DNA of 64,000 nt from NCBI GenBank assembly GCA_044892525.1, contig CM097885.1:372001-436000 (forward strand). The letters run 5' to 3'. The notes below the pieces were generated by a model. That model was not told the DNA's origin, did not search any database, and saw only the letters and a list, made by a program, of their open reading frames with translations. A program made the position numbers and the translations under genes. Numbering within the stretch: position 1 is the stretch's first letter; each line of letters begins with the position of its first letter. Shown one piece after another: positions 7,551-48,235 of the stretch. This DNA comes from Schmidtea polychroa (Eukaryota).

Positions 7551-7799
7551 AAGGCTTTGCATAATTTGAGATATTACTAACCCTTATTTACCCGTCTTTT
7601 TCAAATTCGATTGTTATTCCGAATTGAATTTTGACGGAGCCTAATTCGTTAATAATATCTCCTCATTTTATTATTAGTTGTTCAGGAAATATTATTTCTT
7701 TTATATTTAAGTCGCTTGTATTTAAGCTTAATATTTGATGTGTAATTTTAGCAATAATTTAGCAATGAATCAATTGGATTGACTCATGGTTTCGCGGGC

Positions 7800-12179: not shown

Positions 12180-12245
12180 TTGATTGGTTAGAATTTGTTC
12201 CTATAAACAATAATAATCTATAAACAATAATAATCTATAAACAAT
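12180..12245 (+). promoter_or_regulatory. Candidate PolB promoter (reverse CCAAT followed by TATAAA)
   Basis: TGATTGG followed by three TATAAACAATAAT repeats ~50-90 nt upstream of ATG 12289; the same layout occurs at ~29765-29860 and ~41410. Confidence 0.5.
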
Positions 12246-13029
12246 AATCAATCATTAGTCACATTTAACAAATAATTAACCTTTAAAAATGAATTCTTTA
12301 ATAGAAAACGTTATGAATGTTCGAGAAAAAATTCAGGAATTTGGTAAATTTTAATTTATTTATTAATTAATTTATTAATTAATTTAGATAATATTAATGA
12401 AGACAATTTAAAATCGAAGATTAAAGGAAATTTGAAAAGAAAAAGTAAACATAATTTTTAATTTATTAATTTAATTAATTAATAATTTAGGTAATACGAA
12501 TAAAGAGAAAAAATATGTCAATGTGTCAATAAATCGAAATGAAAATTTACAATGTAAGTATTGATTACTTTTTATAATTTAAAGGAAATTTAATATAATT
12601 TTTTATTTAAGTAAATGTTAATATTTTTAATTTAGTAAATTTTTATTTTTTAGTAAATAAAATTTGTAAAATAATAATAATTTGCAAATTTTTGCGTAAA
12701 CATTTATTAAAATCTTTCATTTAAATTATATATTTTTATTAAATTTTTATTTTATAGGTATACTTTATCCAAATTATTGTTCATCGAAAAAACATGATAA
12801 TAATTGCCATTCTATAATGGAGAATTATTACAAGAAAAGATATTATAATAAAACTTATTTTATATGTCCCGTATGTAAGACTAGTGACCCTGTAACATGT
12901 AGCGATTTTATAATAAACATAAAAATCATTTAGATAGGTTTAATTTTAAAAAAGATAGTGTTTTTAAAAGACCCTCAACTATAGAAAAAAATAATACAAA
13001 TAAAAAAATTAAATTAGATACTTCTTCTT

Positions 13030-13225
13030 TTGAATCCCAGGTCAGGTTAGAGGTTGAATCCCAGGCTGGATTGTCTTTTGTTGAATTCCAGGTCGGATTG
13101 TCTTTTGTTGAATCCAATGATGGATTGGTTGTTGAATCCCAGGTCGGATTGCCTTTTGTTGAATCCAATGATGGATTGGTTGTTGAATCCCAGGTCGGAT
13201 TGGTTGTTGAATCCAATGATGGATT
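13030..13225 (+). repeat. Coding minisatellite in the PolB N-terminal region (VESQVGL../VESNDGL.. units)
   Basis: Alternating 24/27-nt units gttgaatcccaggtcggattg / gttgaatccaatgatggattg; also at ~32503-32595 and ~42260-42480. Confidence 0.9.
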
Positions 13226-13975
13226 ATTCACTTCCTTTGATTCTTGGGATGGATTAAATATAATACAAATAGGTGGAAATGTATCGACAGTACAAAGAGA
13301 TTTAAGAGGTACCCATCAAATATTAAGCTTAAATACAGCGACTTAAATATAAAAGAAATAATATTTCCTGAACAACCAATAATAAAATTACGAGATATTA
13401 TTAACGAATTAGGATCCGTCAAAATTCAATTCGGAATAACAATCGAATTTGAAAAAGACGGGTAAATAAAGGTTAATAATATCTCCAATTACGCAAAACC
13501 TTTAACTGCATCATTTTTTGATCAAGGCATTAAGGAACTAAATGAGAAAATAACTAATATTACAGAGTTAGGAAGCAATTGGATTATAAAAATTATAACA
13601 GAAATCCACTTCACTATAACAAAAATAAGTAGGTTAAGTAGATTAAGTGGTAGGAGTTTCATTGAAACACCTACTTATCTAAAAAATAAATATTGTTTAA
13701 TTAATATAAGAAACACTGATGATTCATGTTTTTTATATAGCATTTTAGCTATTTTAAAATATGATGAAGTTAGTAGTTATGCTAGAAATAGGACATCGAG
13801 TTATATTTTATCAAACTTAGTATATAACCCGTTAGAATTACCTATGAAATTAAAAGACATTAGGAAATTTGAATCTAAAAATTCGGGTTTAATAATTAAT
13901 GTTTTTTCATATGATACTAGCAAACAATTAACTGATAATTATGTATTAAAACATCCACATTTAGATATTATACAT

Positions 13976-16250
13976 CAGGGGTGCCCACTAATTTTTCTAG
14001 GAGTGCTACATTCACATCCAAAATGTGTATGCGATCTACTTTTTTAATACTTACATAATATTTACCTAAAATGCAATAAATTCATCACAATAGAACAAAT
14101 ATATGTCAAAATATGGAAAATTAAACTATGTAACTATTTATTATAAAAAAATATAACTTAGGAAATCAAATTTAATGAAAATTATTGTTATATAGAACTT
14201 TTCGATGTTGATGCTCTACATTGGGTTGAATCCACTAGATTTTTGTAGTTTGGGATATAAGTGCTAAGACAACTTCTTAGGCTGGATTCCAAATGGTCAT
14301 CTGTTAATGTTGCTCGGTACTTTGACTTAATAATTTTCATATGTGAAAATGCAGACTCACATAAATAAGTTGAACCAAAAGATGATACTAAATTTTCGAA
14401 GCATTTTTTCAAGTTTGAATATTTATCCTCTGATAGATATTTCCATACATTTGGTTCGGAAGATCTTGATTTAATGAAGATATCATTTTGAAGTGTGATT
14501 ATTTCCATTTCAAGTATAGGGATATCCATTTTAAACAAAGTTGAAATTGAATCTGCAACAATTTCTGGCTTTATTTTTGGATTAAACGGAAAGGACATAA
14601 ATGCAGCCACAATTTCAAGTTTCTTGAAGTCTTGAAAACGTCTCTCGAGCTCTAAAACCAAAATTTTGATCTGTTCCGCATATCTCGTAATATTAAAGTT
14701 GACATTTTCAGATTCTTTTAATTGTGACAACATATTTGGAAAATAACTTAAATTTTTGTCTTTTATTTTGATAATAAGTAAATGAAGCTTTTGTATAAAT
14801 GCAATGATTGAACTTATCATATCGAATATCAATTTATCCTTACCATGTAAGTCGAGATTTAATTCATTCAGAATTGCAGTAATATCTACTAAAAATGCCA
14901 AATCCAAGAGCCAAACATCATCTTCCAATTGCTTGAACTCATCACCTCTTGCGGCAAGGAACAACTTAATCTCAGAAAGCAAATCTCTAAATCTTTGTAA
15001 GAATTTTCCTCTACTTAGCCACCTTACATCTGAATGCATCAGTAATTCAGCAGGACCTTCGCTATTACTTTCTTCAATTTGTAATTTGAAAAGTCGTCTC
15101 TGAAGACTTCTTGCACGAATCGAGTTAGCAATTTTGAATGTTATTTCCATAATATCTCTCATATTCTGAATTTTAGCACACAAGGTTTGTTGATGAATAA
15201 TACAGTTGTAGGAAAGAAAATCTGGGAATTCACAATCATTCCTACAATATGCTATAAATCCGTTGTGACACCTGTCATAGCTGGTGCGCCATCTGTTGTT
15301 ATTGATACAAGCTTACAAATTTGGAGCTGAATGCTGTTGGCATAAGCTTTAAAATTCTGAAATATATCCTCACCTCGAGTTTTACTTTTGAGTGGTATAA
15401 TTGTTAATAATTCTTCCTTCGTAGAAAAATCTTTAAAGACCATTCGAATAAAAATTATAAGCTGCGAAATATCAGCCGCATCAGTTGATTCGTCTGCTTG
15501 CAATGAAAATGCAGTACAATTTCCTATGTCTAACATTAACTGATATTTTAAATTGGTACTTTTTTCTTGGACTCTCCGTGTAACTGTATTACGGGACAAT
15601 TGCATATCAGTAATAGCAGAAATTATATCTGATTTATTTTTAAAATCACAAAATAATGATTCTGCCGCTTCTAAAAATGCTTCTTTTACAATTACTCCAT
15701 CACTAAAAGATTTCTTATTTTTTGCCAGAATGTAGCTTACTCGGAAAGATGCAGCTGTAGCTGACTTTGATTTGGATGCTAGCTTCGTAAAAAATAACTG
15801 CATGTTTTCAGTTCCATGATTTTAGACTTGCGTAGTTCACTGTCAAGTGGATAATCAACTGCAAAATTCTTATGAATTGTCTTGAAATGCCTTTCCAAAT
15901 TCCCTCTTTTTGGTAATGAAATAGTAGCTTTACAAATTAAGCAACAACATTTACCTTTAATCATTACAAAAAAGTACTCCTTCTCCATTTCTTCGCTATA
16001 ATGATAAGTCTTGGCTTTTCTATTTATCATTTTTTATTTAGCATTTTTTTATTTAGCATTTTTAAACAAAATTAATTTAACAAAAAAGCTTAAGAAAATT
16101 TTTCACTTTGTTACACAAAAATTTAAGTATAAAACAGAAATTTTATATAAAATCTAAATTTATATAAAAAATATTTTTTTTATGAAGATCTACTAAAAAA
16201 TCCTTCGCGGTCTACCGGATAGATCGCGATCGAACTTATGGGCACCCCTG
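13976..16250 (-). mobile_element. hAT DNA transposon, Buster/SPIN/Charlie-like (GTF2IRD2-type transposase), copy 1
   Basis: TIRs CAGGGGTGCCCA...TGGGCACCCCTG with a perfect 8-bp TSD TTATACAT (13968-13975, 16251-16258) having a central TA. Frameshifted transposase 14188-16030 with CLIC..RHFKTIH, DESTD, TDGAPAM, RWLSRG and STYLCESAFS. Confidence 0.96.
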
Positions 16251-19200
16251 TTATACATCGTTTCTAAGTTTTAAATGGAACTTTATTTAATTTACTACTA
16301 TTAAATAAAGGAAACAATTTCCATTACGTTGCTATAAGTAATTTAAATAGGTTACTGAATTGTGGTATCAACACTAGTTGTCCTACACGTATACGTTCAT
16401 TATGGTGCCATCGGTGTTTGAATGGGTTTATGTATAAACAGGCACTGGAAAAACATGAAATATTATGTAAACGTAATCAATTAGGAACAACTCTTTACAC
16501 TTTCCCTCAAAATAAATTATTGCAGTTTACTGACTGGTCGAAAACAGTAACTCCTCCTTTTGTAGTTGATGCCGATTTTGAGGCTATTTTACCTTCTGAT
16601 AATGTTCATTTCCAACGACACATGACAATATCTGCTGGTCTTTTACTTGTAAATAACTTTGACGTATCTAAATCTTATCAACAGTTCATAGGTTTAGATT
16701 GCGTCGAGAGTTTTTTAAGTGCTATAGAGGATATAGCATTAAATAAGGTTCTTCCTTTTTATTATAAAATGGGTAGGAAACCTATGATTAAATTAACGAA
16801 AATTGAACAACGTCAATTTGTTAGTGCATCTGTTTTTTATCTTTGTATGAAATCTATCGTTGATCCTGTTAGAGATCACGATCATTTTACAGGGAAATAC
16901 TTGGGTGCAGCTTGTAGCACATGTAACAAAAATAAGAAAATAAATAAAATTTTGCCTATCGTATTTCACAACTTGAAGGGATACGATATGCATCATATAC
17001 TTAAATACGGATTAAATAAATTTAAAAATTGGACTTTAGGTTGCATCCTAATAACGACTGAAAAATTTATTTCTTTGATTGCGCATTTAGGCAAAAGAAT
17101 TGATTCTTATCAATTCATTGATTCTTATCAATTTGTTAATGATTTTTTAGCTAAAGCAGTCAAAACTTTGAATTCTTAGCCTTTCACTAATTCTGTTTTT
17201 TCTGGCACTATAGTTTCTGAAAAAGGAATCTTCCCTTATAATTTCGCTACATCTTTAGATATTCTCCAAACTACTTATGAATTACCACCAATCTGGGAGG
17301 GTGTTACTGAGCTTTAGTATGAAAAAGCTCAGGAGATTTGGGTAGAAACTATTTGCCTAATTTTATTAGATTATATGATGATCTACTTAAAACTTGATTG
17401 TTTTCTTTTGGCTGATTTCTTTCATCAGTTTCGGTTGAAATCTATTGCTCACAATAGATTGGAACCATTGAATTATTTCGGAATTCCAGGTATGTCTTGG
17501 TCTTCTGCATTAATGTCTTTAAATGAACCAATTGAGCTCATAACTGAAAACGAAATGTTTAGCTTTTATGAGGGTGGAATAAGAGGCGGTATTACTTTTG
17601 TGAATTAGCATTACGTAAAAACCGATGAGAACACCGAGTTAATTTATATAGATATTAATGATCTTTATGGTTGGGCTTTAAGTCAATCATTACCTTGTGG
17701 TGAATTTAGTTGGGTTCTTGATGGATTTGATTTAATAATGGATGAAAGTAGGAATTTAAATCTTGATTCTTTGTCTTATGGATACACTCTTGAAGTTGAT
17801 CTTGTAATTTCTTCTGAGCTAAATGAGAAGTTGGATGATTTCCCTGAAGCTGCTGAAAAATTGGGCATGTAAGATTAAGTGAATTAAATATTGGAGAAAA
17901 TGTTGTAGAAATTGTTGGAGAAAATGTTGGAGAAATTGTTGGAGATGAATTTGATGAAAATGTTGGAGAAGATTTTGGAGAAGATGATATCGACATCGAT
18001 GACGTTATTTTGTCTGATGAGGACTAATTTTATTAAATAAAAGTTTATATATATACATTTGTTATTTTTTTGGTAAATTTTTATGTTTTTTATGTGTCTT
18101 GTTATTGTTTATATGTTTTGTTATGTGTCTAGTTATTTTTATGTGTTTAGTTAATTTTTTATGTGTTGTATAGTATTTGGTTGATATATTATTATTATTA
18201 TTTTTATTATTATTTCATAAACATTTCCATTAAAAGTTACCATTGAAAAATATTTCATTTCAATTGTTAATAAATTTAAAAATCTTACTTTAATTTACTT
18301 ATTTAACTTTAATTTTTTACCATTGATTACTTAATTTTAAAATTTGGACCTTAATTAACTTTAATTTAATTTTTTAGAACCTTAATTTAGTTATTTGTGC
18401 CGATGAGAACACCGAGTTACTTTATTTAGATATTAATAATCTTTATGGTTGGGCTTTAAGTCAATCATTACCTTGTGATGAATTTAGTTGGGTTCTTGAT
18501 GGATTTGATTTAATAATGGATGAATGTAGGAATTTAAATCTTGATTCTTTGTCTTATGGATACACTCTTGAAGTTGATCTTGTAATTCCTTCTGAGCTTC
18601 ATGATAAGTTGGATGATTTCCCTGTAGCAGCTGAAAAAATGAAACCTGCTGGGTCTAAGGTTAAAAAATTATTATTAACTCATCTTCCAAATTCTAATTA
18701 TGTGATTCATTGGAGATTATTAAAATTATATTTGGAACTTGGTGTTAAAGTAACACGTGTAAATAGGGGTGTAAGATTTAAGCAATCTCCAATTTTTAAA
18801 AAATATATAGATACAAATACAGAAATAAGGTCAAAAAGCATAAATAATTTAGATAAAAATTATTATAAATTGTTAAATAACAGTTTATACGGCAAAACAG
18901 TTGAAAATTTAAAGAGAAGAATGAATCTTCGTCTTTGTACAACTGCCGGTAAATAAGTAACATATTCTTCAAAGCCGACTTTTAAAAAACTATTAAAATA
19001 GACGATAATTTAATTGCGGCATTAGTGAATTCAGATTCTATATGTTTAGTTAGACCAAGTTACATTGGTCAATCTGTACTTGATCTATCTAAACTTAGAA
19101 TGTATGAATTACAATATATTATATTGAATATAAGGATCTAGAATCATTTCGCAATGAGTTTAATAATAAAATTAATATCGTTGCAGGTGATACAGATTCT

Positions 19201-20099
19201 TTTTTCCCCGAAGTTAATAACTGTAAACTTGAGGTTCTTTTACCTGCAATGATTCGAGATAATTTATTACATACTTCCAATTACAATAATTGTCATTCCT
19301 TATATAGTAAGAACTTTGATTCAGTCATTGGAAAGTTCAAAGACGAGAATAAAGGTCTTAAATATAAGGAATGGGTTTTTCTTAGACCTAAATGTTATAG
19401 CTTGTTGGGTGATGAGGAAACAAAAAAGGCTAAAGGTGTAACATTGAAAGGTAGTGACATAAAACATCAGTCATACCTGGATTGTTATAACACTAACCAG
19501 ATTTTTTCGGTTCCTCAGACTAAAATAACAAGCAAAAATCATCAAATTTTTACAATTAAAAATACTAAAATAGCACTTACTAACAAAGATGACAAAAGGG
19601 TTTGGGTGGGAAAAAATACTAGTCTTGCATATAGGCATGTAAGATTAAGTGAATGAATTAAATATTAGAGAAAATGTTGGAGAAATTGTTGGAGAAAATG
19701 TTGGAGAAATTGTTGGAGATGAATTTGATGAAAATGTTGGAGAAGATTTTGGAGAAGATGATATCGATATCGATGACGTTATTTTGTCTGATGAGGACTA
19801 ATTTTATTAAATAAAAGTTTATATCTATACATTTGTTATTTCTTTGGTAAACTTTTATGTTTGTTATGTGTCTAGTTAATGTTTATATGTTTTGTTATGT
19901 GTTTAGTTAATTTTTTATGTGTTGTATAGTATTTGGTTGATATATTATTATTATTTTTATTATTATTTCATAAATATTTCCATTAAAAATTACCATTGTA
20001 AAATATTTCATTAAAATTTCTTTTAAAAATAATTCATAAAAAATTATTTCATAAAAATTTTCATTAAAAAATTTCAATTCTCAAACACCTTCTATTATT

Positions 20100-20922
20100 T
20101 TGTTAATAAATTTAAAAATCTTACTTTAATTTACTTATTTAACTTTAATTTTTTACCATTGAATACTTAATTTTAAAATTTGGACCTTAATTAACTTTAA
20201 TTTAATTTTTTAGAACCTTAATTTAGTTATTTGTGCCCATTCATTACTTTAATTTAAAATTTTGGACCTTGATTTACTTTATTTAAATTTTTTAGAACCA
20301 TTTTTTACTTTAATTTAAAAATTTGAACCTTACTTTACTTAGTTGAGCCCTTAATTAACTTTAATTTTAAATTTTGAACCATTATTTACTTTAATTTAAA
20401 AATTTGAACCTTAATTTAGTTATTTGAGCCCATTCATTACTTTAATTCAAAAATCTTAGCCCATAATTTACTTTAATTCAAAAAAATTTGAACCTTGATT
20501 TACTTAAATTTAATTTTTTAGACCCATCATTTACTTTATTTTTAAATTTTAGACCCATAATTTGCTTTATTTTAAAAATATACTATGCGTTTTTAATGTA
20601 AACTACCTTTTCTATTGAAATTCTCATGACCAAGGAGACCCCCTCACTGTAGTCTGAAAAATCCATGCTTTTTTATTGAAGACTACCTTTTTCTATTGAA
20701 ATTCTCAGGACCAAGGAGACCCACCCAAATAATATTTATCCTTGGCTTGTTTATTGAAAAAAAAATTTTTTGTATTTAAAATCCCAGCAAAAATACATTG
20801 GAGCGTACGGCAACAATTATGTATTCAAAAAATGTCTACGGCAAAAATTATGCAATCAAAAGTTTGCAACATTTTTACCCCCCCCCCCCCCTATTTCTCC
20901 CGCGGGCCCCTAACTACCTACT
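20100..20922 (+). repeat. Candidate right terminal region of a Polinton: ~30-bp subterminal array, short direct repeats, poly-C, terminus ...CCTAACTACCTACT
   Basis: Lies downstream of the PolB 3' end. The last 21 nt match 10310-10330 at 19/21, followed by an abrupt switch to LINE-derived DNA. Confidence 0.65.
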
Positions 20923-27313: not shown

Positions 27314-27778
27314 TTAATTAAGTGATAATAAAAAATCTAAAAATTCTTTTCCTTCAATTATTGATTTAATTTCAGATATGATATTATCAACTATACATTT
27401 GTAATCAATATTTTTTATTCCAAGAATTACTATCTTACCGCTAGCGAATATATTTACACACATAGGGTTATATTTTATATATCTCAAAGCTGGAAATAAT
27501 TCTGGTTCGTAAACACATGGTATTAATTTAGCCAAATTATTTAAATTACAAGAAAAACCTATATCGGAAGTTACGGTTACCGATTGTATTTCTAAATCAT
27601 AAACATTATATTCACTAGCTTTGATTATTTCCTTACACCCCATAATTCTACATTTACCAGTTTTGAAATATATTATTGGATATTTATTACTTCTATTGAT
27701 AAGTTGTTGTGGTTTCCCCATTGGAAATACCATTTTTGATACATCAGCTTTTGCCCTGTAATTTATATTTGAAAGCAT
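27314..27778 (-). CDS. TATA-binding protein (TBP)-like protein, 154 aa, intronless
   Basis: Two TBP repeats: LSNINY...IIYFKTGKCRIMGCK and EIQSVTVTSDIGF..NL..L...YEPELFPAL.Y...VNIFASGKIVILG.K. Confidence 0.88.
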   Translation of the reverse strand: MLSNINYRAKADVSKMVFPMGKPQQLINRSNKYPIIYFKTGKCRIMGCKEIIKASEYNVYDLEIQSVTVTSDIGFSCNLNNLAKLIPCVYEPELFPALRYIKYNPMCVNIFASGKIVILGIKNIDYKCIVDNIISEIKSIIEGKEFLDFLLSLN

Positions 27779-27882
27779 TTTAATGAAATAATTATAAAAA
27801 CTCTGTTATATATAGTTATTTTAAAAAGGAGTTCATTTAAATTATCAATATAAACAATAATTATATAGTTTAAATTTAAAAA

Positions 27883-28521
27883 ATGGAATTACGAAATGAT
27901 GCAGTATACCAAATCGTTGGTCCGAGTGGTAGTGGAAAAACATTATTTGTTTGTAAATTACTAAAATCTAATTTGTTCAAAACAAAATTCAACAATATTT
28001 ATTGGCATAGGGGCGCCGATGAAGAACATGGATTGACTCAATCAAGTTTCTGTCAATTGAAAAACATGAAAATAGTAAAGGGTTTTGATAAAAACTGGTC
28101 AAGTCGTTTGAAAAAAGATGATGTCATCATTATCGATGATTTGTATCAAGAAGCCAATAAAGAAAAGGATTTTAATAATTTATTCACAAAAATCAGCAGA
28201 CATGTCGGTGTAACAGTTATTTTCATTACACAAAATCTATTTCATCAAGGTGGTGCACATCGAACACGTAATTTAAATGTACAATATCTAGTTATTTTCA
28301 AGAATCCTAGAGATGCAACTGTCATCGATTTTCTTGGACGACAAGCATACCCTAATAACCGTAATTTTCTTATCAGTGCATTTCAAGATGCTACGAAAAT
28401 ACCTCATGGGTATATATTTCTCGATTTCACACAACAATGTCCTGATGATATACGGGTAAAAACAGATATTTTCAACCCAAAAGGTGCCATGGTTTATAAA
28501 CAAAGTTTAAAACAAATTTGA
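27883..28521 (+). CDS. A32/FtsK-like genome packaging ATPase (Polinton type)
   Basis: Walker A GPSGSGKT, Walker B IIIDD, LFTKISRH..VTVIFITQNLF and FKNPRD; intact 212 aa. Confidence 0.93.
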   Translation: MELRNDAVYQIVGPSGSGKTLFVCKLLKSNLFKTKFNNIYWHRGADEEHGLTQSSFCQLKNMKIVKGFDKNWSSRLKKDDVIIIDDLYQEANKEKDFNNLFTKISRHVGVTVIFITQNLFHQGGAHRTRNLNVQYLVIFKNPRDATVIDFLGRQAYPNNRNFLISAFQDATKIPHGYIFLDFTQQCPDDIRVKTDIFNPKGAMVYKQSLKQI

Positions 28522-28534
28522 AAACATATAAATC

Positions 28535-29029
28535 ATGTTTTCAAAAACAAGGATATCGAGTAAAAAACAACCAAAAGTTCCACCAACAACTAGTTATACT
28601 CCATCTAAAGAACTTATTACAGAAAATTTTCCTGCAATGAATCTCATTTTGAAAAATCCTAAACCTAAACCTAAAAGTAAAACCACTAAGAAAGTAAAAG
28701 TTGTTAAAAATCATCGGAGTTTCCCGTTTTTCAATACATTGTTAAAGGCACCCAGTATGAAAAGAAACAGTATTTTGCAATCTTTTCCAAATTATGTTGT
28801 CGATGATTTACTCGATATTATACTTAAAGTAGTCAAAGGTAAGATTAAAATCAGTAAATCTAAAAAGCAATTATTGAGTAAACATAGGAAACCTTTGCTA
28901 TCATTAGTAAATAATAAAAATCGTCAACAAATGAGAAAAATTATATATAAACAACAAGGGGGATTTATCGGTGCATTGATACCTTTAGCAATATCATTAT
29001 TAGGTGGAATAATAGGAAGTCGATCATAA
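28535..29029 (+). CDS. Basic core/pVII-pX-like virion protein
   Basis: Lys-rich, ending QQGG-FIGALIPLAISLLGGII (protease-site-like GG followed by a hydrophobic helix); lies between the ATPase and integrase. Confidence 0.65.
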   Translation: MFSKTRISSKKQPKVPPTTSYTPSKELITENFPAMNLILKNPKPKPKSKTTKKVKVVKNHRSFPFFNTLLKAPSMKRNSILQSFPNYVVDDLLDIILKVVKGKIKISKSKKQLLSKHRKPLLSLVNNKNRQQMRKIIYKQQGGFIGALIPLAISLLGGIIGSRS

Positions 29030-29090
29030 ACAATGGGTGCTAATCCTTCATTACCAGACATTAAATTTAATTTTAAATCTTCTTGTTGTA

Positions 29091-29630
<540 letters not shown>

Positions 29631-29929
29631 TTGAAAAATATTATTAATTCTACATAAAGACTACCTATGCCTGAAGCATGCACAGTGCAAGTTAACAAAG
29701 GCATGACTAACAAAGGCAGTCACATGTAATTTCTGAGTGATTTACATTACATGCATGCATGCGTGTGATTGGTTGAGAGATGAAAATTTCAAGTTACTAT
29801 GCGTATGTGTCTAATTCTGATTGGCTGGGACATGAAATTTTTCATTCTCTTTATAAACATTGACAAATCTAAAATTTGTCACAATTATTTTAAAATTTTA
29901 AAAATCTATTAATAATAATATTTAACAAC

Positions 29930-30243
29930 ATGAACAACAACAACAATATTCAAAGAGTTGACGGAAAGATCGTTGGAGGAATTAATGGTAAATTTATTAT
30001 TTTATTATTTTATTATTTTTAATATGATTATTAGGTACTAATCAACAAATGAATATCGACGGACAAGCTGTAGACATGAATAGAATAAATGGTAATAGTT
30101 TACTATTATAATCATTATTATTTTATTATGCTTTTAGATGGAATAAATACTTCTGCTGGTTCTGATGCTGGAAAATTTCTTTCGAAAGGACGAAAATGTA
30201 AGTATTTATTTATTGTTATAAGTTTTTAAGTTTTTTAAACAAT

Positions 30244-30285
<42 letters not shown>

Positions 30286-30983
30286 TAAAAGAAGAAACTT
30301 ATGAAAAGAAGATTTTTTCATGAAAAGAAGATATTTTAAAAGAAGATTTATTTATGAAAAGAAGATTTATGAAAAGAAGATTTATTCATGAAAAGAAGAT
30401 TTACTTATTTATGAAAAGAAGATTTACTTATTTATTTATTTATGATAATTTTTGAAAAGAAGATTTATTCATGAAAAGAAGATTTACCTATTTATTTATT
30501 TATGAAAAGAAGATTTACTTATTTATTTATGATAATTTATGAAAAGAAGATTTACTTATTTATTTATTTATGAAAATGAATTAAATTATTTATGAAAACG
30601 AATTAAATTATATATATTTTATAATATTTTTTATAAGATACTATTTAAAAGATAATTTTGAATAATATCTTACGAAAAATATCTTAAACTTTAAAAATGA
30701 TTATTATCTTAATATTTTTTAAACATTTTATGATAAAAATATTTTCATAGGTTTGAAATACCAAAACTTTTGTAATAGTCAATATCATAATGACTGCGAT
30801 GATATAATGGAAAGATATTATAGTCATAAATATAACAGTGTCACCTACATCCTATGCCCTAAATGTGAGGTTATTGAAGTTATAACGTATAAGGAATTTT
30901 ATAATAAGCATAGACTCCATCTCCAACAATTTAAACCTTCTAAGAAGTCTCTTTTCTATAGCTTATATGAATCGTTTGTTAAC

Positions 30984-31017
<34 letters not shown>

Positions 31018-31058
31018 TCAACAATAATATCAACAACAATAATAATAATATCAACAAC

Positions 31059-31104
<46 letters not shown>

Positions 31105-32502
31105 TCAACAATAATAATAATAATAATATCACCAACAATAATACTAACAGCACCAATAATAATAATAATGATATAAACGAAATAAATAATCTAAAAGATC
31201 AAGTAAATAAATTAAATGAACAAATAAATAATCTAATTAATATGAATAAAAGAAAAAATAATGAAAAAATAAATTCAATACCAAGTAAAAAATCTAAAGT
31301 TATTGATGTAATCACAATAAGTGATGATGATGAAATAATCAACATAAGTGATGAGGAAATTGATAATAATAATAATAATAATAGTAGTAGTAGTAATATT
31401 TATTATAATAATCGTATTAATAATACTAATCAAATAGGTTATGGTGTCGTAGATGTCACCAGTGATTTAAATAATAATCATATTATATTAAAAATGGACG
31501 TTTCGTCTTTAGATTTAAAAACGGTCTCTGTACCAGAAATTTTAATAAATAAATTAAATTTATATGTAAATAAATTAAAATCATGTAAAATTCAATTTTG
31601 TCTAAAGGTGGAATTTATAAAAGATGATGAGTTACAATCTTTTGTAATCTCGAATTCCGCCCGAGTTTGGAGCGATACATTCATTGACGAAAGTATTGCT
31701 CGTTTAAATGAAAAAATAATTAAAATTAATGAGAAAGGTAGTAATTGGACTATCAATAAAATAGAATACATAAGCTTTGTTCTTACTAAATTTGCTGAAA
31801 TAAGTCGATTAAGTGGTAGAAGTTTTATTGAAACCCCAAAATCTTTAAGAAACTTAAGCTGTCTCATTAATGTAGTTAATAATGACCACTTCTGCTTTTT
31901 GTATAGTTTCTTGTCAATTATTAAATATGACTGTATAAATAGGCAATATAGAAATCGCCCTAATTCCTACAATCTTTCTGAAATTAAATTTGATCCTAAT
32001 GATATGCCGATGAAACTATCAAATATAAGTAAATTTGAACAACAAAATCCGGGTTATAGTATTAATGTTCTTACTTATAACGAAAAGGCTTTGATTGACA
32101 TTTCCGATGAAGATGCAGTTATGAAACATCCATTTATTGATATAATATATAGGAGTAAGATAGTAGGAGCCATACCTATCAATTTATTATTAATCGAAAA
32201 GAATGATAATTATCATTATCTTGGAATCACAGACCTAAATAGATTTCTTAATTGTAGGAATAGTTCAATCACTCCTGTTAGGATTTGTAGTCAGTGGTGC
32301 CCTAGATGTTTAAACGGTTTTAGGAATGATGACACTTTTAATAGACATAAGGGTCTTTGCGATAAAAATCAGCTTGGTACTACCTTGTACACATTGCCTA
32401 AAAATAAATATTTAGAATTTACTGATTGGAGTAAAACAGTTACTCCTCCCTTTGTTATTTACGCCGACTTTGAGGCTATCTTACCTAAAGACACTCGCTA
32501 CT
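29930..32502 (+). pseudogene. pPolB lineage C, 5' half (spliced leader, poly-Asn, terminal-protein-like region, up to exo I)
   Basis: Predicted exons 29930-29987, 30035-30091, 30138-30197 and 30751 onward. Uninterrupted frame with INVVNNDHFCF, HYLGI, CPRCL..F....HKGLC and YADFEA. Confidence 0.9.
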
Positions 32503-33495
32503 TTGAATCCAATGATGGATTGGTTGTTGAATCCCAGGTCGGATTGCCTTTTGTTGAATCCAATGATGGATTGGTTGTTGAATCCAATGATGGATTATTC
32601 ACTTCCTTTGATTCTTGGGATGGATTAAATATAATTCAAATAGGTGGAAATGTATCGACAATACAAAGAGATTTTAGAGGTACCCATCAAATATTAACTT
32701 TAAATACTAGCGACTTAAATATAAAAGAAATAATATTTCCTGAACAACTAATAATAAAATTACGAGATATTATTAACGAATTAGGATCCGTCAAAATTCA
32801 ATTCGGAATAACAATCGAATTTGAAAAAGACGGGTAAATAAAGGTTAATAATATCTCCAATTACGCAAAACCTTTAACTGCATCATTTTTTGATCAAGTC
32901 ATTAAGGAACTAAATGAGAAAATAACTAATATTACAAAATTAGGAAGCAATTGGATTATAAAAAATATAACAGAAATCCACTTCACTATAACAAAAATAA
33001 GTAGGTTAAGTAGATTAAGTGGTAGGAGTTACATTGAAACACCTACTTATCTAAAAAATAAATATTGTTTAATTAATATAAAAAACACTGATGATTCATG
33101 TTTTTTATATAGCATTTTAGCTATTTTAAAATATGATGAAGTTAGTAGTTATGCTAGAAATAGGACATTGAGTTATAATTTATCCGACTTAGTACATAAC
33201 CCGTTAGAATTACCTATGAAATTAAAAGACATTAGGAAATTTGAATCTAAAAATTCGGGTTTAATAATTAATGTTTTTTCATATGATAATAGCAAACAAT
33301 TAACTGATAATTATGTATTAAAACATCCACATTTAGATATTATAAATCAGGGGTGCCCACTAATTTTTCTAGGAGTGCTACATTCACATCCAAAATGTGT
33401 ATGCGATCTACTTTTTTAATACTTACATAATATTTACCTACAATGCAATAAATTCATCACAATAGAACAAATATATGTCAAAATATGGAAAATTA
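32503..33495 (+). pseudogene. Lineage-A pPolB N-terminal piece plus one end of the hAT element (33348-~33495)
   Basis: Near-identical to ~13160-14120, including the same hAT junction. Confidence 0.92.
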
Positions 33496-39109: not shown

Positions 39110-40405
39110 TTTTTTTTCTAAAATTGTCATTGAAAAATATTTCATAAAAATTTTCATTAAAAATTTCAATTCTCAAACACCTTCTATTATTTTGTTAATA
39201 AATTTAAAATCTTACTTTAATTTGCTTATTACATTACTTATTTAAAAATTATTACTTTAAATTACTTATTTAAAATATTTGACCATTGATTACTTAATTT
39301 AAAAATTTAGACCTTAATTAACTTTAATTTAATTTTTTAGAACCTTAATTTACTTTAATTGAAAATTTTAGACCTTAATTTTCATGTAAAATTGTGATTG
39401 AAAAAATTTTCATTTGTCAGGCGCCGTTTAGTAGGTGGTTAGGAGCCCGCTTCAAATGCAAGCCTTTTTTTTGCTACAACATTTGATTGCGCAATTGTTG
39501 CATCTTGTTTTTTTTTCTATTGAAAATTCTAGAAAAAAAAATAATCGTAGCTTACTGTACAACAAAAAAAATGAGTTGCAACAATTGCGTAATCAAAATT
39601 TGCAGCAAAAAAAAAGTTGCCGCAGACCCCCTCCCCCACTAAAATTTTCAATTAAGTAATTAGGGTCCAAATTTTTCAATTACAGTAAATTATGGTTCTA
39701 AAAAATTAAATTACAGTAAATTATGGTCCAAATTTTCAATTATAGTAAATTATGGTATATATTTTTAAACTTAAGTAAATTAAGGTCTAAAATTTAAAAG
39801 TAAAGTAAATTATGGTATATATTTTTGAACTTAAGTAAATTAAAGTCTAAAATTTCAATTAAGTAAAGTAAGGTAAAAAATTTTCAATTAAGGTCTAAAA
39901 TTTTCAATTAAAGTAAATTAAGGTCCAAATTTTGAATAAGTTAATTAAGGGTCAAAATTTAAAATTAAAGTAAATTAAGGTTCTAAAAAATTAAATTAAA
40001 GTTAATTAAGGTCCAAATTTTTAAATTAAGTAATCAATGGTCAAATATTTTAAATAAGTAAATTAAAGTAATAATTTTTAAATAAGTAATGTAATAAGCA
40101 AATTAAAGTAAGATTTTAAATTTATTAACAAAATAATAGAAGGTGTTTGAGAATTGAAATTTTTTAATGAAAATTTTTATGAAATAATTTTTTAAGTAAT
40201 TTAAGATGAAAATTTTATGAAATATTTTTCAATGACAATTTTCGAAAAAAAAATTTTTTTTGAAATAATTTTAGATGGAAATTATTTAAATTAAGGGATG
40301 CATTTTTAAATTAAAGTAATCAATGATCTATATTTTAAACTTCTATATTCGGTAAACAAAGAATAAATTAAGTAAATAAAGGGTTAAATTAAAGAAAATT
40401 ATGAT
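39110..40405. repeat. Second copy of the subterminal repeat/terminus block, with its core inverted
   Basis: AGTAGGTGGTTAGGAGCCCGC at 39430-39450 is the reverse complement of 10310-10330. Confidence 0.8.
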
Positions 40406-41517
40406 TATAATTATAATAAGATTTAAAGAATAATTACCTTTTCATTTAACACCATTTTAGAATAATATTTTTTATCAAAGTTCTTATCTTGATTTATTTA
40501 ATTTTAATTGAAAGTAATGACGAAATAGAGCGTGTTGTCTTCAATTTTAATGAATTAATTTGAAAGATTATTTAGATAAATTTTTGTGTTTAAGGTATTC
40601 CTTAGTAATTTTTTTCTAGAGTTGATGGTTTTTGTGAATTTTTATCATTTTCATGAATTTCGTGTGGATAGAATGAATATTTAAAAATTTTAATTTAGTT
40701 CTAAGAAAAATTTAATTAATTTCTTGATAATTGGATGCATTTTTATTGATTGGTTTTTTAATTTTAAATAAAAATTATTTTTAATGACAGTTAGGTTAAT
40801 AATCACGTGATAGGATATGACTTTGTAATAATATTTTTTTTCATATATTTTCTAAGAATTTCATGTAGATTTATTTAAAAATTTAAAGTTTTAATGACGA
40901 TTTTAATTGAATTTCTTGATAATTTGTTAAATTTTAAATAAAAATTAATTTTTTTTTAATGACTGTTAGGTTAATAATTAAGTAATTGGTTTAATTTTAG
41001 ATGACTTTGAAATGCATTTGACTAAATAATTTTTTTCAATAATTTTCTAAGAATATTAACACATTGATGAAATTTTTTAAAAAAACATAAGCTAAGAAAC
41101 CAGTTAACCTTATCAAGAACTTTAAATTTACTTGATAATTTACAGAAATAATATACAAAATTTAATTTACAGAAATAATTTACAAAATAATAATACAGAA
41201 ATTTATGATTAATTTTGCTTTTATGAACAATCAATATATATCATCTCTAGTTAGGTATTTGATAGGTGAAATATTTGTAGTAAATAATAAGTTTATTATG
41301 TCTTTGTTACATAACTCGACTTTAGCGTCAAAATGTGTTTTTAAAATAAATTTTAATTTTAAAATACCGCAATGTCATATAATAATTTTTTCCTACCCTT
41401 CCTTGATTTTGATTGGTTAGAATTTGTTCCTATAAACAATAATAATCTATAAACAATAATAATCTATAAACAATAATCAATCATTAGTCACATTTAACAA
41501 ATAATTAACCTTTAAAA

Positions 41518-44500
41518 ATGAATTCTTTAATAGAAAACGTTATGAATGTTCGAGAAAAAATTCAGGAATTTGGTAAATTTTAATTTATTTATTAATTAAT
41601 TTATTAATTAATTTAGATAATATTAATGAAGACAATTTAAAATCGAAGATTAAAGGAAATTTGAAAAGAAAAAGTAAACATAATTTTTAATTTATTAATT
41701 TAATTAATTAATAATTTAGGTAATACGAATAAAGAGAAAAAATATGTCAATGTGTCAATAAATCGAAATGAAAATTTACAATGTAAGTATTGATTACTTT
41801 TTATAATTTAAAGGAAATTTAATATAATTTTTTATTTAAGTAAATGTTAATATTTTTAATTTAGTAAATTTTTATTTTTTAGTAAATAAAATTTGTAAAA
41901 TAATAATAATTTGCAAATTTTTGCGTAAACATTTATTAAAATCTTTCATTTAAATTATATATTTTTATTAAATTTTTATTTTATAGGTATACTTTATCCA
42001 AATTATTGTTCATCGAAAAAAACATGATAATAATTGCCATTCTATAATGGAGAATTATTACACGAAAAAATATTATAATAAAACTTATTTTATATGTCTC
42101 GTATGTAAGACTAGTGACCCTGTAACATGTAGCGTTTTTTATAATAAACATAAAAATCATTTAGATAGGTTTTAATTTTAAAAAAGATAGTGTTTTTAAA
42201 AGACCCTCAACTATAGAAAAAAATAATACAAATAAAAAAATTAAATTAGATACTTCTTTTGAATCCCAGGTAGGATTAGAGGTTGAATCCAAGGCTGGAT
42301 TGTCTTTTGTTGAATTCCAGGTCGGATTGTCTTTTGTTGAATCCAATGATGGATTGGTTGTTGAATCCCAGGTCGGATTGCCTTTTGTTGAATCCAATGA
42401 TGGATTGGTTGTTGAATCCCAGGTCGGATTGCCTTTTGTTGAATCCAATGATGGATTGGTTGTTGAATCCAATGATGGATTATTCACTTCCTATGATTCT
42501 TGGGATGGATTAAATATAATACAAATAGGTGGAAATGTATCGACAGTACAAAGAGATTTAAGAGGTACCCATCAAATATTAAGTTTAAATACAGCGACTT
42601 AAATATAAAAGAAATAATATTTCCTGAACAACCAATAATAAAATTACGAGATATTATTAACGAATTAGGATCCGTCAAAATTCAATTCGGAATAACAATC
42701 GAATTTGAAAAAGACGGGTAAATAAAGGTTAATAATATCTCCAATTACGCAAAACCTTTAACTGCATCATTTTTTGATCAAGGCATTAAGGAACTAAATG
42801 AGAAAATAACTAATATTACAGAGTTAGGAAGCAATTGGATTATAAAAAAGATAACAGAAATCCACTTCACTATAACAAAAATAAGTAGGTTAAGTAGATT
42901 AAGTGGTAGGAGTTTCATTGAAACACCTACTTATCTAAAAAATAAATATTGTTTAATTAATATAAGAAACACTGATGATTCATGTTTTTTATATAGCATT
43001 TTAGCTATTTTAAAATATGATGAAGTTAGTAGTTATGCTAGAAATAGGACATCGAGTTATAATTTATCCGACTTAGTATATAACCCGTTAGAATTACCTA
43101 TGAAATTAAAAGACATTAGGAAATTTGAATCTAAAAATTCGGGTTTAATAATTAATGTTTTTTCATATGATACTAGCAAACAATTAACTGATAATTATGT
43201 ATTAAAAAATCCACATTTAGATATTATACATCAGGGGTGCCCACAAATTTTTCTAGGAGTGCTACATTCACATCCAAAATGTGTATGCGATCTACTTTTT
43301 TAATACTTACATAATATTTACCTACAATGCAATAAATTCATCACAATAGAACAAATATATGTCAAAATATGGAAAATTAAACTATGTAACTATTTATTAT
43401 AAAAAAATGTAACTTAGGAAATCAAATTTAATGAAAATTATTGTTATATAGAACTTTTGGATGTTGATGCTCTACATTGGGTTGAATCCACTAGATTTTT
43501 GTAGTTTGGGATATAAGTGCTAAGACAACTTCTTAGGCTGGATTCCAAATGGTCATCTGTTAATGTTGCTCGGTACTTTGACTTAATAATTTTCATATGT
43601 GAAAATGCAGACTCACATAAATAAGTTGAACCAAAAAATGATACTAAATTTTCGAAGCATTTTTTCAAGTTTGAATATTTATCCTCTGATAGATATTTCC
43701 ATACATTTGGTTCGGAAGATCTTGATTTAATGAAGATATCATTTTGAAGTGTGATTATGTCCATTTCAAGTATAGGGATATCCATTTTAAACAAAGTTGA
43801 AATTGAATCTGCAACAATTTCTGGCTTTATTTTTGGATTAAACGGAAAGGACATAAATGCAGCCACAATTTCAAGTTGCTTGAAGTCTTGAAAACGTCTC
43901 TCGAACTCTGAAACCAAAATTTTGATCTGTTCCGCATATCTCGTAATATTAAAGTTGACATTTTCAGATTCTTTTAATTGTGACAACATATTTAGAAAAT
44001 AACTTAAATTTTTGTCTTTTATTTTGATAATAAATAATGAAGCTTTTGTATAAATGCAATGATTGAACTTATCATATCGAATATCAATTTATCCTTACCA
44101 TGTAAGTCGAGATTTAATTCATTCAGAATTGCAGTAATATCTACTAAAAATGCCAAATCCAAGAGCCAAACATCATCTTCCAATTGCTTGAACTCATCAC
44201 CTCTTGCGGCAAGGAACAACTTAATCTCAGAAAGCAAATCTCTAAATCTTTGTAAGAATTTTCCTCTACTTAGCCACCTTACATCTGAATGCATCAGTAA
44301 TTCAGCAGGACCTTCGCTATTACTTTCTTCAATTTGTAATTTGAAAAGTCGTCTCTGAAGACTTCTTGCACGAATCGAGTTAGCAATTTTGAATGTTATT
44401 TCCATAATATCTCTCATATTCAGAATTTTAGCACACAAGGCTTGTTGATGAATAATACAGTGGTAGGAAAGAAAATCTGGGAATTCACAATCATTCCTAC

Positions 44501-46963
44501 AATATGCTATAAATCCGTTGTGACGCCCTGTCATAGCTGGTGCGCCATCTGTTGTTATTGATACAAGCTTACAAATTTGGAGCTGAATGCTGTTGGCATA
44601 AGCTTTAAAATTCTGAAATATATCCTCACCTCGAGTTTTACTTTTGAGTGGTATAATTGTTAATAATTCTTCCTTCGTAGAAAAATCTTTAAAGACCATT
44701 CGAATAAAAATTATAAGCTGCGAAATATCAGCCGTATCAGTTGATTCGTCTGCTTGCAATGAAAATGCAGTACAATTTCCTATGTCTAACATTAACTGAT
44801 ATTTTAAATTGGTACTTATTTCTTGGACTCTCCGTGTAACTGTATTACGGGACAATTGCATATCAGTAATAGCAGAAATTATATCTGATTTATTTTTAAA
44901 ATCACAAAATAATGATTCTGCCGCTTCTAAAAATGCTTCTTTTACAATTACTCCATCACTAAAAGATTTCTTATTTTTTGCCAGAATGTAGCTTACTCGG
45001 AAAGATGCAGCTGTAGCTGTCTTTGATTTGGATGCTAGCTTCGTAAAAAATAACTGTTGAAAAAAAATGCATGTTTTCAGTTCCATGATTTTAGACTTGC
45101 GTAGTTCACTGTCAAGTGGATAATCAACTGCAAAATTCTTATGAATTGTCTTGAAATGCCTTTCCAAATTCCCTCTTTTTGGTAATGAAATAGTAGCTTT
45201 ACAAATTAAGCAACAACATTTACCTTTAATCATTACAAAAAAGTACTCCTCTCCATTTCTTCGCTATAATGATAAGTCTTGGCTTTTCTATTTAGCATTT
45301 TTTATTTAGCATTTTTTTATTTAGCATTTTTAAACAAAATTAATTTAACAAAAAACCTTAGAAAATGTTTCACTTTGTTACACAAAAATTTAAGTATAAA
45401 ACAGAAATTTTATATAAAATCTAAATTTATATAAAAAATATTTTTTTTATGAAGATCTACTAAAAAATCCTTCGCGATCTACCGGATAGATCGCGATCGA
45501 ACTTATGGGCACCCCTGTTATACATCGTTCCTAAGTTTTAAATGGAACTGTAATTAATTTACTACTTTTAAATAAAGGAAACAATTTCCATTACGTTGCT
45601 ATAAGTAATTTAAATAGGTTACTGAATTGTGGTATCAACACTAGTTGTCCTACACGCATACGTTCATTATGGTGCCATCGGTGTTTGAATGGGTTTAGGT
45701 ATAAACAAGCACTGGAAAAACATGAAATATTATGTAAACGTAATCAATTAGGAACAACTCTTTACACTTTCCCTCAAAATAAATTATTGCAGTTTACTGA
45801 CTGGTCGAAAACAGTAACTCCTCCTTTTGTAGTTGATGCCGATTTTGAGGCTATTTTACCTTCTGATAATGTTCATTTCCAACGACACATGACAATATCT
45901 GCTGGTCTTTTACTTGTAAATAACTTTGACGGATCTAAATCTTATCAACAGTTCATAGGTTTAGATTGCGTCGAGAGTTTTTTAAGTGCTATAGAGGATA
46001 TAGCATTAAATAAGGTTCTTCCTTTTTATTATAAAATAAGTAGGAAACCGATGATTAAATTAACGAAAATTGAACAACGTCAATTTGTTAGTGCATCTGT
46101 TTTTTATCTTTGTATGAAATCTATCGTTGATCCTGTTAGAGATCACGATCATTTTACAGGGAAATACTTGGGTGCAGCTTGTAGCACATGTAACAAAAAT
46201 AAGAAAATAAATAAAATTTTGCCTATCGTATTTCACAACTTGAAGGGATACGATATGCATCATATACTTAAATACGGATTAAATAAATTTAAAAATTGGA
46301 CTTTAGGTTGCATCCCAATAACGACTGAAAAATTTATTTCTTTGATTGCGCATTTAGGCAAAAGAATTGATTCTTATCAATTCATTGATTCTTATGAATT
46401 TGGTAATGATTCTTTAGCTAAAGCAGTCAAAACTTTGAATTCTTAGCCTTTTACTAATTCTGTTTTTTCTGGCACTTTAGTTTCTGAAAAAGGAATTTTC
46501 CCTTATAATTTCGCTACATCTTTAGATATTCTCCAAACTACTTATGAATTACCACCAATCTGGGAGGGTGTTACTGAGCTTTAGTATGAAAAAGCTCAGG
46601 AGATTTGGGTAGAAACTAATTGCCTAACTTTATTAGATTATATGATGATCTACTTAAAACTTGATTGTTTTCTTTTGGCTGATTTCTTTCATCAGTTTCG
46701 GTTGAAATCTATTGCTCACAATAGATTGGAACCATTGAATTATTTCGGAATTCCAGGTATGTCTTGGTCTTCTGCATTATTGTCTTTAAATGAACCAATT
46801 GAGCTCATAACTGAAAACGAAATGTTTAGCTTTTATGAGGATGGAATATGAGGCGGTATTACTTTTGTGAATTAGCATTACGTAAAAACCGATGAGAACA
46901 CCGAGTTACTTTATATAGATATTAATAATCTTTATGGTTGGGCTTTAAGTCAATCATTACCTT
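41518..46963 (+). pseudogene. pPolB lineage A, copy 2 (spliced leader, hAT insertion, truncated after motif A)
   Basis: Near-identical to 12289-17700. Confidence 0.92.
43232..45517 (-). mobile_element. hAT (Buster-like) transposon, copy 2
   Basis: Same TIRs and TTATACAT TSD (43224-43231, 45518-45525); transposase ORFs 44019..45233 and 43444..43989. Confidence 0.96.
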
Positions 46964-48235
46964 GGACCTTAATTTGGACCTTAATTTACTTTAATTGAAA
47001 ATTTTAGACCTTAATTTACTTAAGTTTAAAAATATATACCATAATTTACTTTACTTTTAAATTTTAGACCATAATTTACTTAATTGAAAATTTTAGACCT
47101 AATTTAATTTAATTGAAAATTTTAGACCTTAATTTACTTAATTGAAAATTTAAGACCTTAATTTACTTAATTGAAATTTTAGACCTTAATTTACTTAAGT
47201 TTAAAAATATATACCATAATTTACTGTAATTGAAAAATTTGGACCATAATTTACTGTAATTTAATTTTTTAGAACCATAATTTACTGTAATTGAAAAATT
47301 CGAGCGACTAATTACTTGGTTAACTTTGCAGTCATTTAAAGCAAAACTTAATTTATTCATCTAATGTTCGTTACAATAGTTAATAATATGAGAAAAATAT
47401 GGTCATTATTCATTGATAATTTTAAATTCTTTATCATTTGGAGTAAATTTGTTTGAGGCAAAAATAATTAAAGGAGTCATAATAGAAATATGGTTATCAT
47501 TTAACCAATTAAGGGGCTTATTAGTTAGAAATATATATATTATAAAGTAACAATTATTTTCTAATTTAATTAGTAGATCATTAGACGTAATATATCTTTG
47601 CGAGAAATTTAAAATGTTTGAGTAACCAAAACATGGATATTTTGTGCGATAAATTTATGAATATTGGTTAATTTTGTTATTTTTAGTCATTTAAAATAAT
47701 ATTTAGCAAAGGTAATTTAGCAAAATATCGTTGTAAGATTTATCCACCCGATAACAATATTCCTTCAATAGATTAACTGATATTCAACCTATTTAATTTC
47801 TGGAAATATAATTAAAATCATAAATTTCCTTCAATAAAGTTAAATCAAAAACGCAAGAGACGCTCAAGCAAATCAAGAATTAAAAAATAAACACATTGCA
47901 GAAACAGAATTTATATAAAGTCAAACCCTGACTCCTCCAACAGATTCAAGTCTAAATAAAATTCAATCAAAAGCAATAACACTAGTAAGTAGGAATCCAA
48001 CCCACTTTCAAGGTCATGAAATATGTCCAGATCAAATATAGGTCAATTGAATCATTTATTTTTAAATTAACATTTTATTTATTTACTTCTTTTTAATTTT
48101 TTCTTTTTAATTATATTAATTAATTATTTTATTTTGTTTTATTTTAATTACTTACTTTAGTTAATTTTTAATTTATTACATTAATTAATTTCTTAGTTTA
48201 TTAATATTTTATTTTAATTACTTACGCTATTTAAA

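Follow-up and report, generated by a model that had tools for sequence, protein, structure and literature searches.

A predicted spliced 5′ leader on the Maverick/Polinton-like DNA polymerase genes of two sister lineages in Schmidtea polychroa

A DNA polymerase gene (PolB) in a 64,000-nucleotide stretch of the Schmidtea polychroa genome (contig CM097885.1, positions 372,001 to 436,000 of the forward strand; hereafter the window) appears to open with three very short exons, each followed by an intron, before its long coding region begins. The same arrangement stands at the head of the polymerase genes of a second lineage in the window. Two questions follow from this: whether the layout is a property of the genes at all, and, if so, why two lineages (here A and C) should share it. 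A preliminary description of the window had called the two lineages very divergent and had taken the shared layout as a sign that splicing itself is under selection, for instance as a control of expression or of host surveillance.

All six introns proposed in that description were recovered exactly where it had placed them, with GT and AG at their ends and in phase 1, and the exons of 55 to 63 nt between them have open frames (Table 1). In both lineages intron 3 begins GTAAGT and splits a TGT codon after the T, and the Cys/His modules that follow are indeed homologous (49% identity over 72 aa). The three copies in the window are all defective. Exon 4 of the C copy is truncated just past the exonuclease motif FVIYADFEA, with tblastn identity changing from C to A at ∼32503, and both A copies have lost the frame near the start of exon 4. 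Positions 10410 to 17697 and 39642 to 46964 form a 7.3-kb direct repeat of 96% identity, and the two A polymerase copies carry the identical hAT insertion; they are therefore the product of a segmental duplication of one decayed insertion. The layout does recur from 41518, as had been noted, but because this copy is a duplicate of the first it adds no independent support. A stretch at 7489 to 7743, considered as a fragment of a further lineage, B, whose polymerase 3′ part occurs in many copies, was rejected as decayed A-like sequence.

Table 1. Features of the PolB genes of lineages C and A and of the genes upstream of the C copy, in window coordinates; exons and introns are as predicted.
Feature	Positions	Strand	Description
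Lineage C PolB exon 1	29930-29987	+	58 nt, ATG, open frame; donor GTAAAT at 29988
Lineage C intron 1	29988-30034	+	47 nt, phase 1, GT..AG, GC 0.064
Lineage C exon 2	30035-30091	+	57 nt
Lineage C intron 2	30092-30137	+	46 nt, phase 1, GT..AG
Lineage C exon 3	30138-30197	+	60 nt; final T is base 1 of the split Cys codon
Lineage C intron 3	30198-30750	+	553 nt, GTAAGT..AG, phase 1, tandem repeats throughout
Lineage C exon 4	30751-32502	+	Last two bases (GT) of the Cys codon, then the Cys/His module, a poly-Asn linker and the N-terminal half of the polymerase
Lineage-A-like sequence, chimeric junction with the C copy	32503-33495	+	98% identical to 42388-43379
Lineage A exons 1-3	12289-12343 (55 nt), 12388-12444 (57 nt), 12491-12553 (63 nt)	+	
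Lineage A introns 1 and 2	12344-12387 (44 nt), 12445-12490 (46 nt)	+	GT..AG, phase 1
Lineage A intron 3	12554-12757	+	204 nt, GTAAGT..AG, phase 1, splits TGT
Lineage A exon 4 remnant	12758-19705	+	Frameshifted, interrupted by hAT (14191-15821, minus strand), partly duplicated
Second lineage A copy	41518-46995	+	Segmental duplicate; hAT at 43447-45263, minus strand
A32-like packaging ATPase	27880-28518	+	PF04665, E 1.9e-7, 31.3 bits, above the cut-off of 22.8
Unassigned ORF between ATPase and integrase of the C element	28532-29026	+	
Putative rve integrase, truncated	29016-29654	+	PF00665, E 2.4e-7, 31.4 bits, below the cut-off of 32.6
Filler	29560-29912	+	353 nt; stands in for ∼3.95 kb of the standard C element (L061:1289-5240)

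The surroundings are those of a mobile element. The window is AT-rich (GC 0.17 to 0.38) and consists of a nest of such elements: non-LTR reverse transcriptases, a hAT element, a Maverick/Polinton-like row of genes and many PolB fragments. The genes upstream of the C polymerase (28271 to 29559) match L061:1-1288, part of a standard C element elsewhere in the genome, at 98.8% identity, and the putative rve integrase of L061 gives a PF00665 match of E 9.9e-5 and 23 bits (cut-off 32.6 bits) with a weak chromodomain match. The ∼3.95 kb between integrase and polymerase is gone from the window C copy. A filler-type upstream region is present in 4 of 29 C copies, namely L018, L024, L028 and the window's own (L001). 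The ORFs scanned gave no Pfam match to a capsid jelly-roll or an adenain-like protease, and no OTU match at E ≤ 0.01 came from Pfam scans of the window and L061 ORFs. We take the motif around NNDHFCFLYS to be a candidate OTU-like sequence. On the minus strand at 27317 to 27805, an ORF directly adjoining the A32-like ATPase encodes a TATA-binding-protein domain (PF00352, E 4.8e-15); it may be an element gene or a host fragment.

The joining of exon 3 to exon 4 bears directly on the protein. The module has the form C-x6-C-x4-H-x3-C followed by C-x2-C-x14-15-H-x2-H, and the split codon aligns with its first Cys, which is conserved in relatives; the unspliced reading places Gly at this position. 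In unspliced C exon 4, no in-frame ATG lies ahead of the Met in the motif IME.YY. A complete zinc module thus needs the exon 3/4 splice. The relatives P0014, P0017, P0020, P0023, P0031 and P0037 start M-x(2-4)-C, and in five metagenome contigs an ATG stands 2 to 4 codons before an unsplit Cys codon, with AT-rich, TATA-like sequence upstream and, in four of the five, in-frame stops 5 to 20 codons before the ATG. Other relatives (P0001, P0003, P0016, P0019, P0022 and P0024) have been called by gene finders from the internal Met. In lineage A the in-frame Met codons of the leader are confined to exon 1, so that all three introns are needed, while exon 2 of lineage C holds two in-frame ATGs, which makes a start downstream of exon 1 possible there. 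The module itself matched no Pfam family at E ≤ 1, and its assignment as a PHD-finger was rejected, the Atlas lead of 0.75 being under any useful level. As a separate observation, the ORF in the metagenome contigs L077, L079, L083 and L089 opens near GSHI.L, with no Cys/His module in the 340 to 500 nt upstream, and the ORF start of L083 resembles translated AT-rich intron sequence.

Related copies are abundant in the 781-Mb genome and lie mostly on four very large contigs. The C exon-4 protein has at least 95 matches at 94 to 100% identity, the full-length ones at 95 to 99% and with open frames of up to ∼1400 aa; the A Cys/His module, among the 150 matches listed, is found at 90 to 100% identity with frames of up to ∼1350 aa. 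PolB elements number at least many dozens of copies. Exon-4 frames of intact copies run to 1381 aa in C and 1301 aa in A. The polymerase domain PF03175 is matched in L061:6260-10000 with E 1.7e-28 and 100.2 bits (cut-off 25.8) and in the window fragments with E 6e-13, and intact C exon 4 also has a weak endonuclease-VII-like match.

Several arrangements of these genes were seen in passing. Lineage A polymerase genes occur mostly as divergent (−,+) pairs 2 to 9 kb apart, about 45 such pairs being counted by eye among the 150 matches listed; lineage B is paired likewise, at 10 to 12 kb, as are some C copies (L030). One A pair, L063 and L064 (contig 1:40518000-40533999), forms an inverted repeat whose arms measure at least 5.8 kb, are 99.5% identical and enclose a centre of ∼790 nt. 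In this one pair, which was examined for further genes, no other ORF of at least 120 aa was found; its right end lies before L064:3400, and the next 1.9 kb is single copy. Within the window, tandem-repeat blocks at 10378 to 11039 and 19943 to 20922 flank the first A copy in opposite orientation and match the repeat block beyond the L063/L064 polymerase stop, so these may be terminal repeats of a polymerase-only element. Polymerase-only giant palindromes, in hundreds of copies, may merit a study of their own. A second polymerase ORF of 940 aa (PF03175, E 1.7e-13), with only ∼30% identity to A and C, lies on the plus strand at L062:2937-5756, 2.5 kb downstream of an intact C gene.

We compared the 5′ regions of the genomic copies within each lineage. 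The alignments comprised 29 of 30 C loci, L030 being left out because it is an inverted pair meeting near exon 1, and 28 of 30 A loci, the truncated L050 and L060 being left out. The complete set of six splice dinucleotides, start Met and open frame is kept in 28 of 29 C copies, the exception being L019 (acceptor 2 is AA), and in 24 of 28 A copies, the exceptions being L047 (a stop), L033 (a 1-nt deletion) and L055 and L056 (acceptor 3 is GG). The comparison across copies that the preliminary description had called for thus upholds its intron positions, the layout being intact in 52 of 57. Site by site, each of the three donors is present in 29/29 C and 28/28 A copies, and acceptors 1 to 3 are present in 29/29, 28/29 and 29/29 C copies and in 28/28, 28/28 and 26/28 A copies; donor 1 and acceptor 1 are therefore intact in all 57. 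Exon 1 is open with its ATG in 29/29 C and 28/28 A copies, L033 losing the frame through its deletion.

Among these copies, C exon indels measure 3 or 6 nt: those in exon 1 are 3-nt AAC steps, exon 2 has a 6-nt in-frame insertion in 25 of 29 copies, and exon 3 has in-frame insertions of 6 nt and 3 nt in other copies. Two of these C exon indels are AAC/CTG triplet slippage, however, which goes in threes whether a sequence is coding or not. C intron indels occur at five places and measure 8, 1, 8, 4 and 4 nt (length changes in the AAT repeat of intron 3 left out); an 8-nt deletion in intron 1 is tolerated in four copies, and those of intron 2 are of 1 nt and 8 nt. C intron 3 ranges from ∼417 to 1039 nt among the 29 copies while keeping donor and acceptor in all of them. 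In lineage A, almost all indels lie within introns. Overall, the variation within each family resembles neutral decay and is a poor guide to selection. As a further observation, the leader region of the window C type (29913 to 30230) is ∼93% identical to that of the majority type, from which two 6-nt indels and several substitutions set it apart (L002-L029); the start of exon 4 (30700 to 30900) is 99 to 99.5% identical. Faster evolution of the leader would explain this, as would a recombination that exchanged the 5′ end.

A deflationary explanation for the layout could be that non-coding, AT-rich DNA has produced it by chance, the message being unspliced and read from the internal Met, or the elements being dead. 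The defective state of the window copies and the gene calls made from an internal Met in relatives would both fit such an account. The chance controls, however, speak against it. The spliced leader of 175 nt has no stops in frame 0, versus 6 to 8 in the other frames, and composition shuffles left it open in only 114 of 20,000 trials for C and 20 of 20,000 for A. We also searched a 400-nt region per lineage with the sites left free, accepting an ATG followed by any three-exon chain with exons of 40 to 80 nt, introns 1 and 2 of 40 to 60 nt and the right end phase. Any such chain arose in 2 of 1,000 dinucleotide shuffles per region, while the real sequences yielded the proposed chain and one near variant each; in C, position 30098 offers a near-equivalent in-frame donor, and in A, position 12403 a near-equivalent in-frame acceptor. 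GC content separates exons from introns in both lineages (0.33 to 0.35 versus 0.06 to 0.15 in C; 0.18 to 0.26 versus 0.05 to 0.10 in A). The spliced layout is above chance. Nor would a chance pattern be expected to persist in most of the 57 copies, to restore at the split codon a Cys conserved in relatives, or to head genes of which many copies are 96 to 99% identical with intact frames of ∼1300 to 1400 aa. We consider this explanation extremely unlikely.

A narrower objection is that intron 3 alone, perhaps with intron 2, is real, that transcription or translation starts downstream of exon 1, and that the upstream "exons" are untranslated or spurious. The two ATGs of C exon 2 would allow such a start, and the C exon 1 indels are triplet-repeat slippage. 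In lineage A, however, exon 1 holds the only in-frame Met codons that the leader offers, and the open exon 1 and undamaged first intron in both lineages would be unexplained. Motifs resembling a TATA box lie ∼50 to 85 nt 5′ of exon 1 in A, in the window C type and in the majority C type. The 8-mer TATAAACA, found at 29852 inside the filler upstream of C exon 1, precedes several ORFs and was tried as a common promoter motif; it was rejected as not enriched, with 16 occurrences in the window versus ∼17 expected (our estimate from base composition). A start downstream of exon 1 therefore seems very unlikely to us.

The introns are of a type that the host uses. The CCT-alpha gene of this genome most resembles its counterparts in flatworms and further spiralians, at about 75% identity. 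In host CCT genes, AT-rich introns of 44 to 46 nt with the form GTAAAT/GTAAGT/GTTAGT..AG were found at all three junctions read, and PolB introns 1 and 2 match them in size and motif (44 to 47 nt, GC 0.05 to 0.15). As judged from the DNA, the PolB introns look like U2-type introns: they have GT..AG ends with a host-like donor in six of six, introns 1 and 2 are host-like in length and composition, and removal of the introns restores the frame. No convincing host-type mini-intron was found in the other genes of the C element (L061:1-6300), so intron gain was not general. The three leader exons did not arise detectably by tandem duplication, a candidate we rejected since no exon pair shows significant similarity (best p about 0.06). 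A protein search for annotated spliced homologues gave relatives of at most 60% identity and no gene models from this genome. Read contigs over 29853 to 30240 from four runs, none recorded as RNA, look like DNA, running through the introns with no joints at the predicted sites, and are neutral on splicing. Contigs of two runs of unrecorded kind show a 72-nt skip from 29978 to 30051 with ends GA..AT, so that intron 1 and the adjoining parts of exons 1 and 2 are missing; a deletion carried by some genomic copy is the probable source. In light of the sequence-level evidence, the gene very probably begins with three micro-exons in phase 1 and has a Cys codon interrupted by its third intron, with splicing predicted at all three introns.

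We next consider why two lineages share the layout. Lineages A and C share 62% identity over 1014 aa, and in a FastTree phylogeny of 46 polymerases they form sister branches with 100% local support, so "very divergent" overstated the distance between them. Because they are sisters, a layout common to both is accounted for by common descent. The A and C branches are nested in a 13-member clade that includes four relatives called from the internal Met and no M-x-x-C relatives, and the M-x-x-C start is found in three other parts of the tree. The unsplit M-x(2-4)-C start of relatives indicates that leader and introns are derived, and the simplest history suggested by these sequences would be an unsplit ancestral start and one gain of leader and introns before the A/C split. 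Other members of the polymerase family may have split 5′ ends too. The exon peptides, as the preliminary description had observed, are not visibly conserved: the A and C leaders are barely alignable, their observed similarity score being reached by 40 of 2,000 protein shuffles and 29 of 1,000 DNA shuffles. Constraint on the leader sequence is thus weak.

Common descent is also compatible with a stronger proposal, namely that the introns are kept because splicing controls or protects expression, whether by licensing against silencing, by regulated retention or by an exon-skip switch. P-element activity is controlled through the third intron of that element, and HUSH silences intronless elements; by analogy, the PolB introns might serve in a comparable way. 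The introns here are all crowded into the 5′ end of a 4.1-kb gene that otherwise has a single exon, their geometry has been kept while the leader sequence diverged almost past recognition, and the other element genes examined have no such introns. Passages in two papers describe the Polintons of one planarian, which may be another species, as piRNA-repressed and transcribed on knock-down (PMC8532177, PMC10558129). The sisterhood of A and C, however, yields conservation without special selection, and introns 1 and 2 look like plain minimal introns of the host. The suggestion that symmetric exons could be skipped in frame stands as far as geometry goes, since exons 2 and 3 are multiples of three; it does not extend to a functional skip of exon 3, which alone ends in T, so that its omission would replace TGT by GGT in C or AGT in A and destroy the conserved Cys. 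Selection on splicing itself thus found no support, inheritance between sister lineages being enough to explain the layout, and we regard the proposal as unlikely.

We therefore favor inheritance, with a probability of roughly 0.78: lineages A and C would carry an inherited four-exon Maverick/Polinton PolB gene, spliced by the host and bearing a derived 5′ leader. Host RNA polymerase II would start transcription just 5′ of exon 1, and the ordinary GT-AG spliceosome of the host would take out the introns. The three short exons, divided by two minimal host-type introns and one longer intron, would encode a fast-evolving leader of ∼58 aa and be followed by a single exon of ∼4.1 kb. The exon 3/4 junction would complete a TGT codon; the Cys that it encodes would be the first in a conserved zinc module, CCHC-plus-C2H2-like, near which the protein starts. 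Leader and introns would together be a 5′ extension gained before A and C parted, and passed on since then with its frame preserved; any benefit that the introns bring is something we can only infer.

One such benefit can be imagined. With its 5′ intron cluster, an endogenous virus-like element might have adapted to life in animal nuclei, a fast-evolving, disposable leader that carries introns of host type having been added to a viral polymerase gene that at first had none. If so, the host would treat the message like one of its own spliced mRNAs, which would favor its export and expression, and the message might escape the silencing of intronless or unspliced transcripts; a geometry kept alongside a drifting leader sequence would then be explained. 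We rate this adaptation as unlikely.

An inherited spliced gene would have practical consequences. Annotation pipelines for genes or viruses expect a Maverick/Polinton gene to be one continuous ORF; here they would place the polymerase start at the internal Met and miss the first zinc ligand, and public gene calls on related contigs appear to miss it likewise. Within a single polymerase clade, the unsplit start gave way to a predicted spliced leader, which offers a usable example of intron and 5′-exon gain in an endogenous animal DNA virus, although the case alone opens no long-standing question. We conclude that this is a real gene-structure variant of Maverick/Polinton polymerase genes.

How does it compare with known systems? 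A limited literature search, which is no proof of absence, found no paper describing a spliced leader on an animal Polinton polymerase. Passages of the adintovirus paper define an OTU-PF03175 "Alpha" class of protein-primed PolB (Starrett et al. 2021, PMC8502044), and the intron and splicing passages of that paper make no mention of spliceosomal introns in adintovirus PolB. Like the Mavericks and adintoviruses portrayed in those passages (PMC8502044), the elements studied here have a PF03175 polymerase after a long N-terminal region, have a putative rve-type integrase and an A32-like ATPase nearby, and are multicopy in an animal. Intact vertebrate Mavericks, by contrast, are reported as intronless in passages of Barreat and Katzourakis (2021, PMC8097293), while the polymerase gene here has three predicted 5′ introns and a leader of ∼58 aa.

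Introns have been described in other integrated DNA elements. According to parts of Gozashti et al. (2025, PMC11957031), dinoflagellate Maverick/Polinton-like proviruses carry introners, so that there, as here, spliceosomal-type introns lie within Maverick-like integrated elements. The dinoflagellate introns are described as recent insertions by intron-generating transposons, whereas ours look like host-style minimal introns inherited by two lineages, and the leader exons here, the only parts compared with each other, have no mutual similarity. Intron-bearing genes are a familiar feature of DNA transposons, an example being Ginger1, whose transposase genes contain conserved spliceosomal introns, as set out in sections of Bao, Kapitonov and Jurka (2010, PMC2836005): in both cases GT-AG introns are copied along with a DNA-level element, and their position and phase are conserved among related families. 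Ginger1 is nevertheless another class of element with another enzyme (PMC2836005), and in the polymerase genes described here the predicted introns are confined to a 5′ leader that is absent from relatives, with one of them splitting the codon of a zinc ligand.
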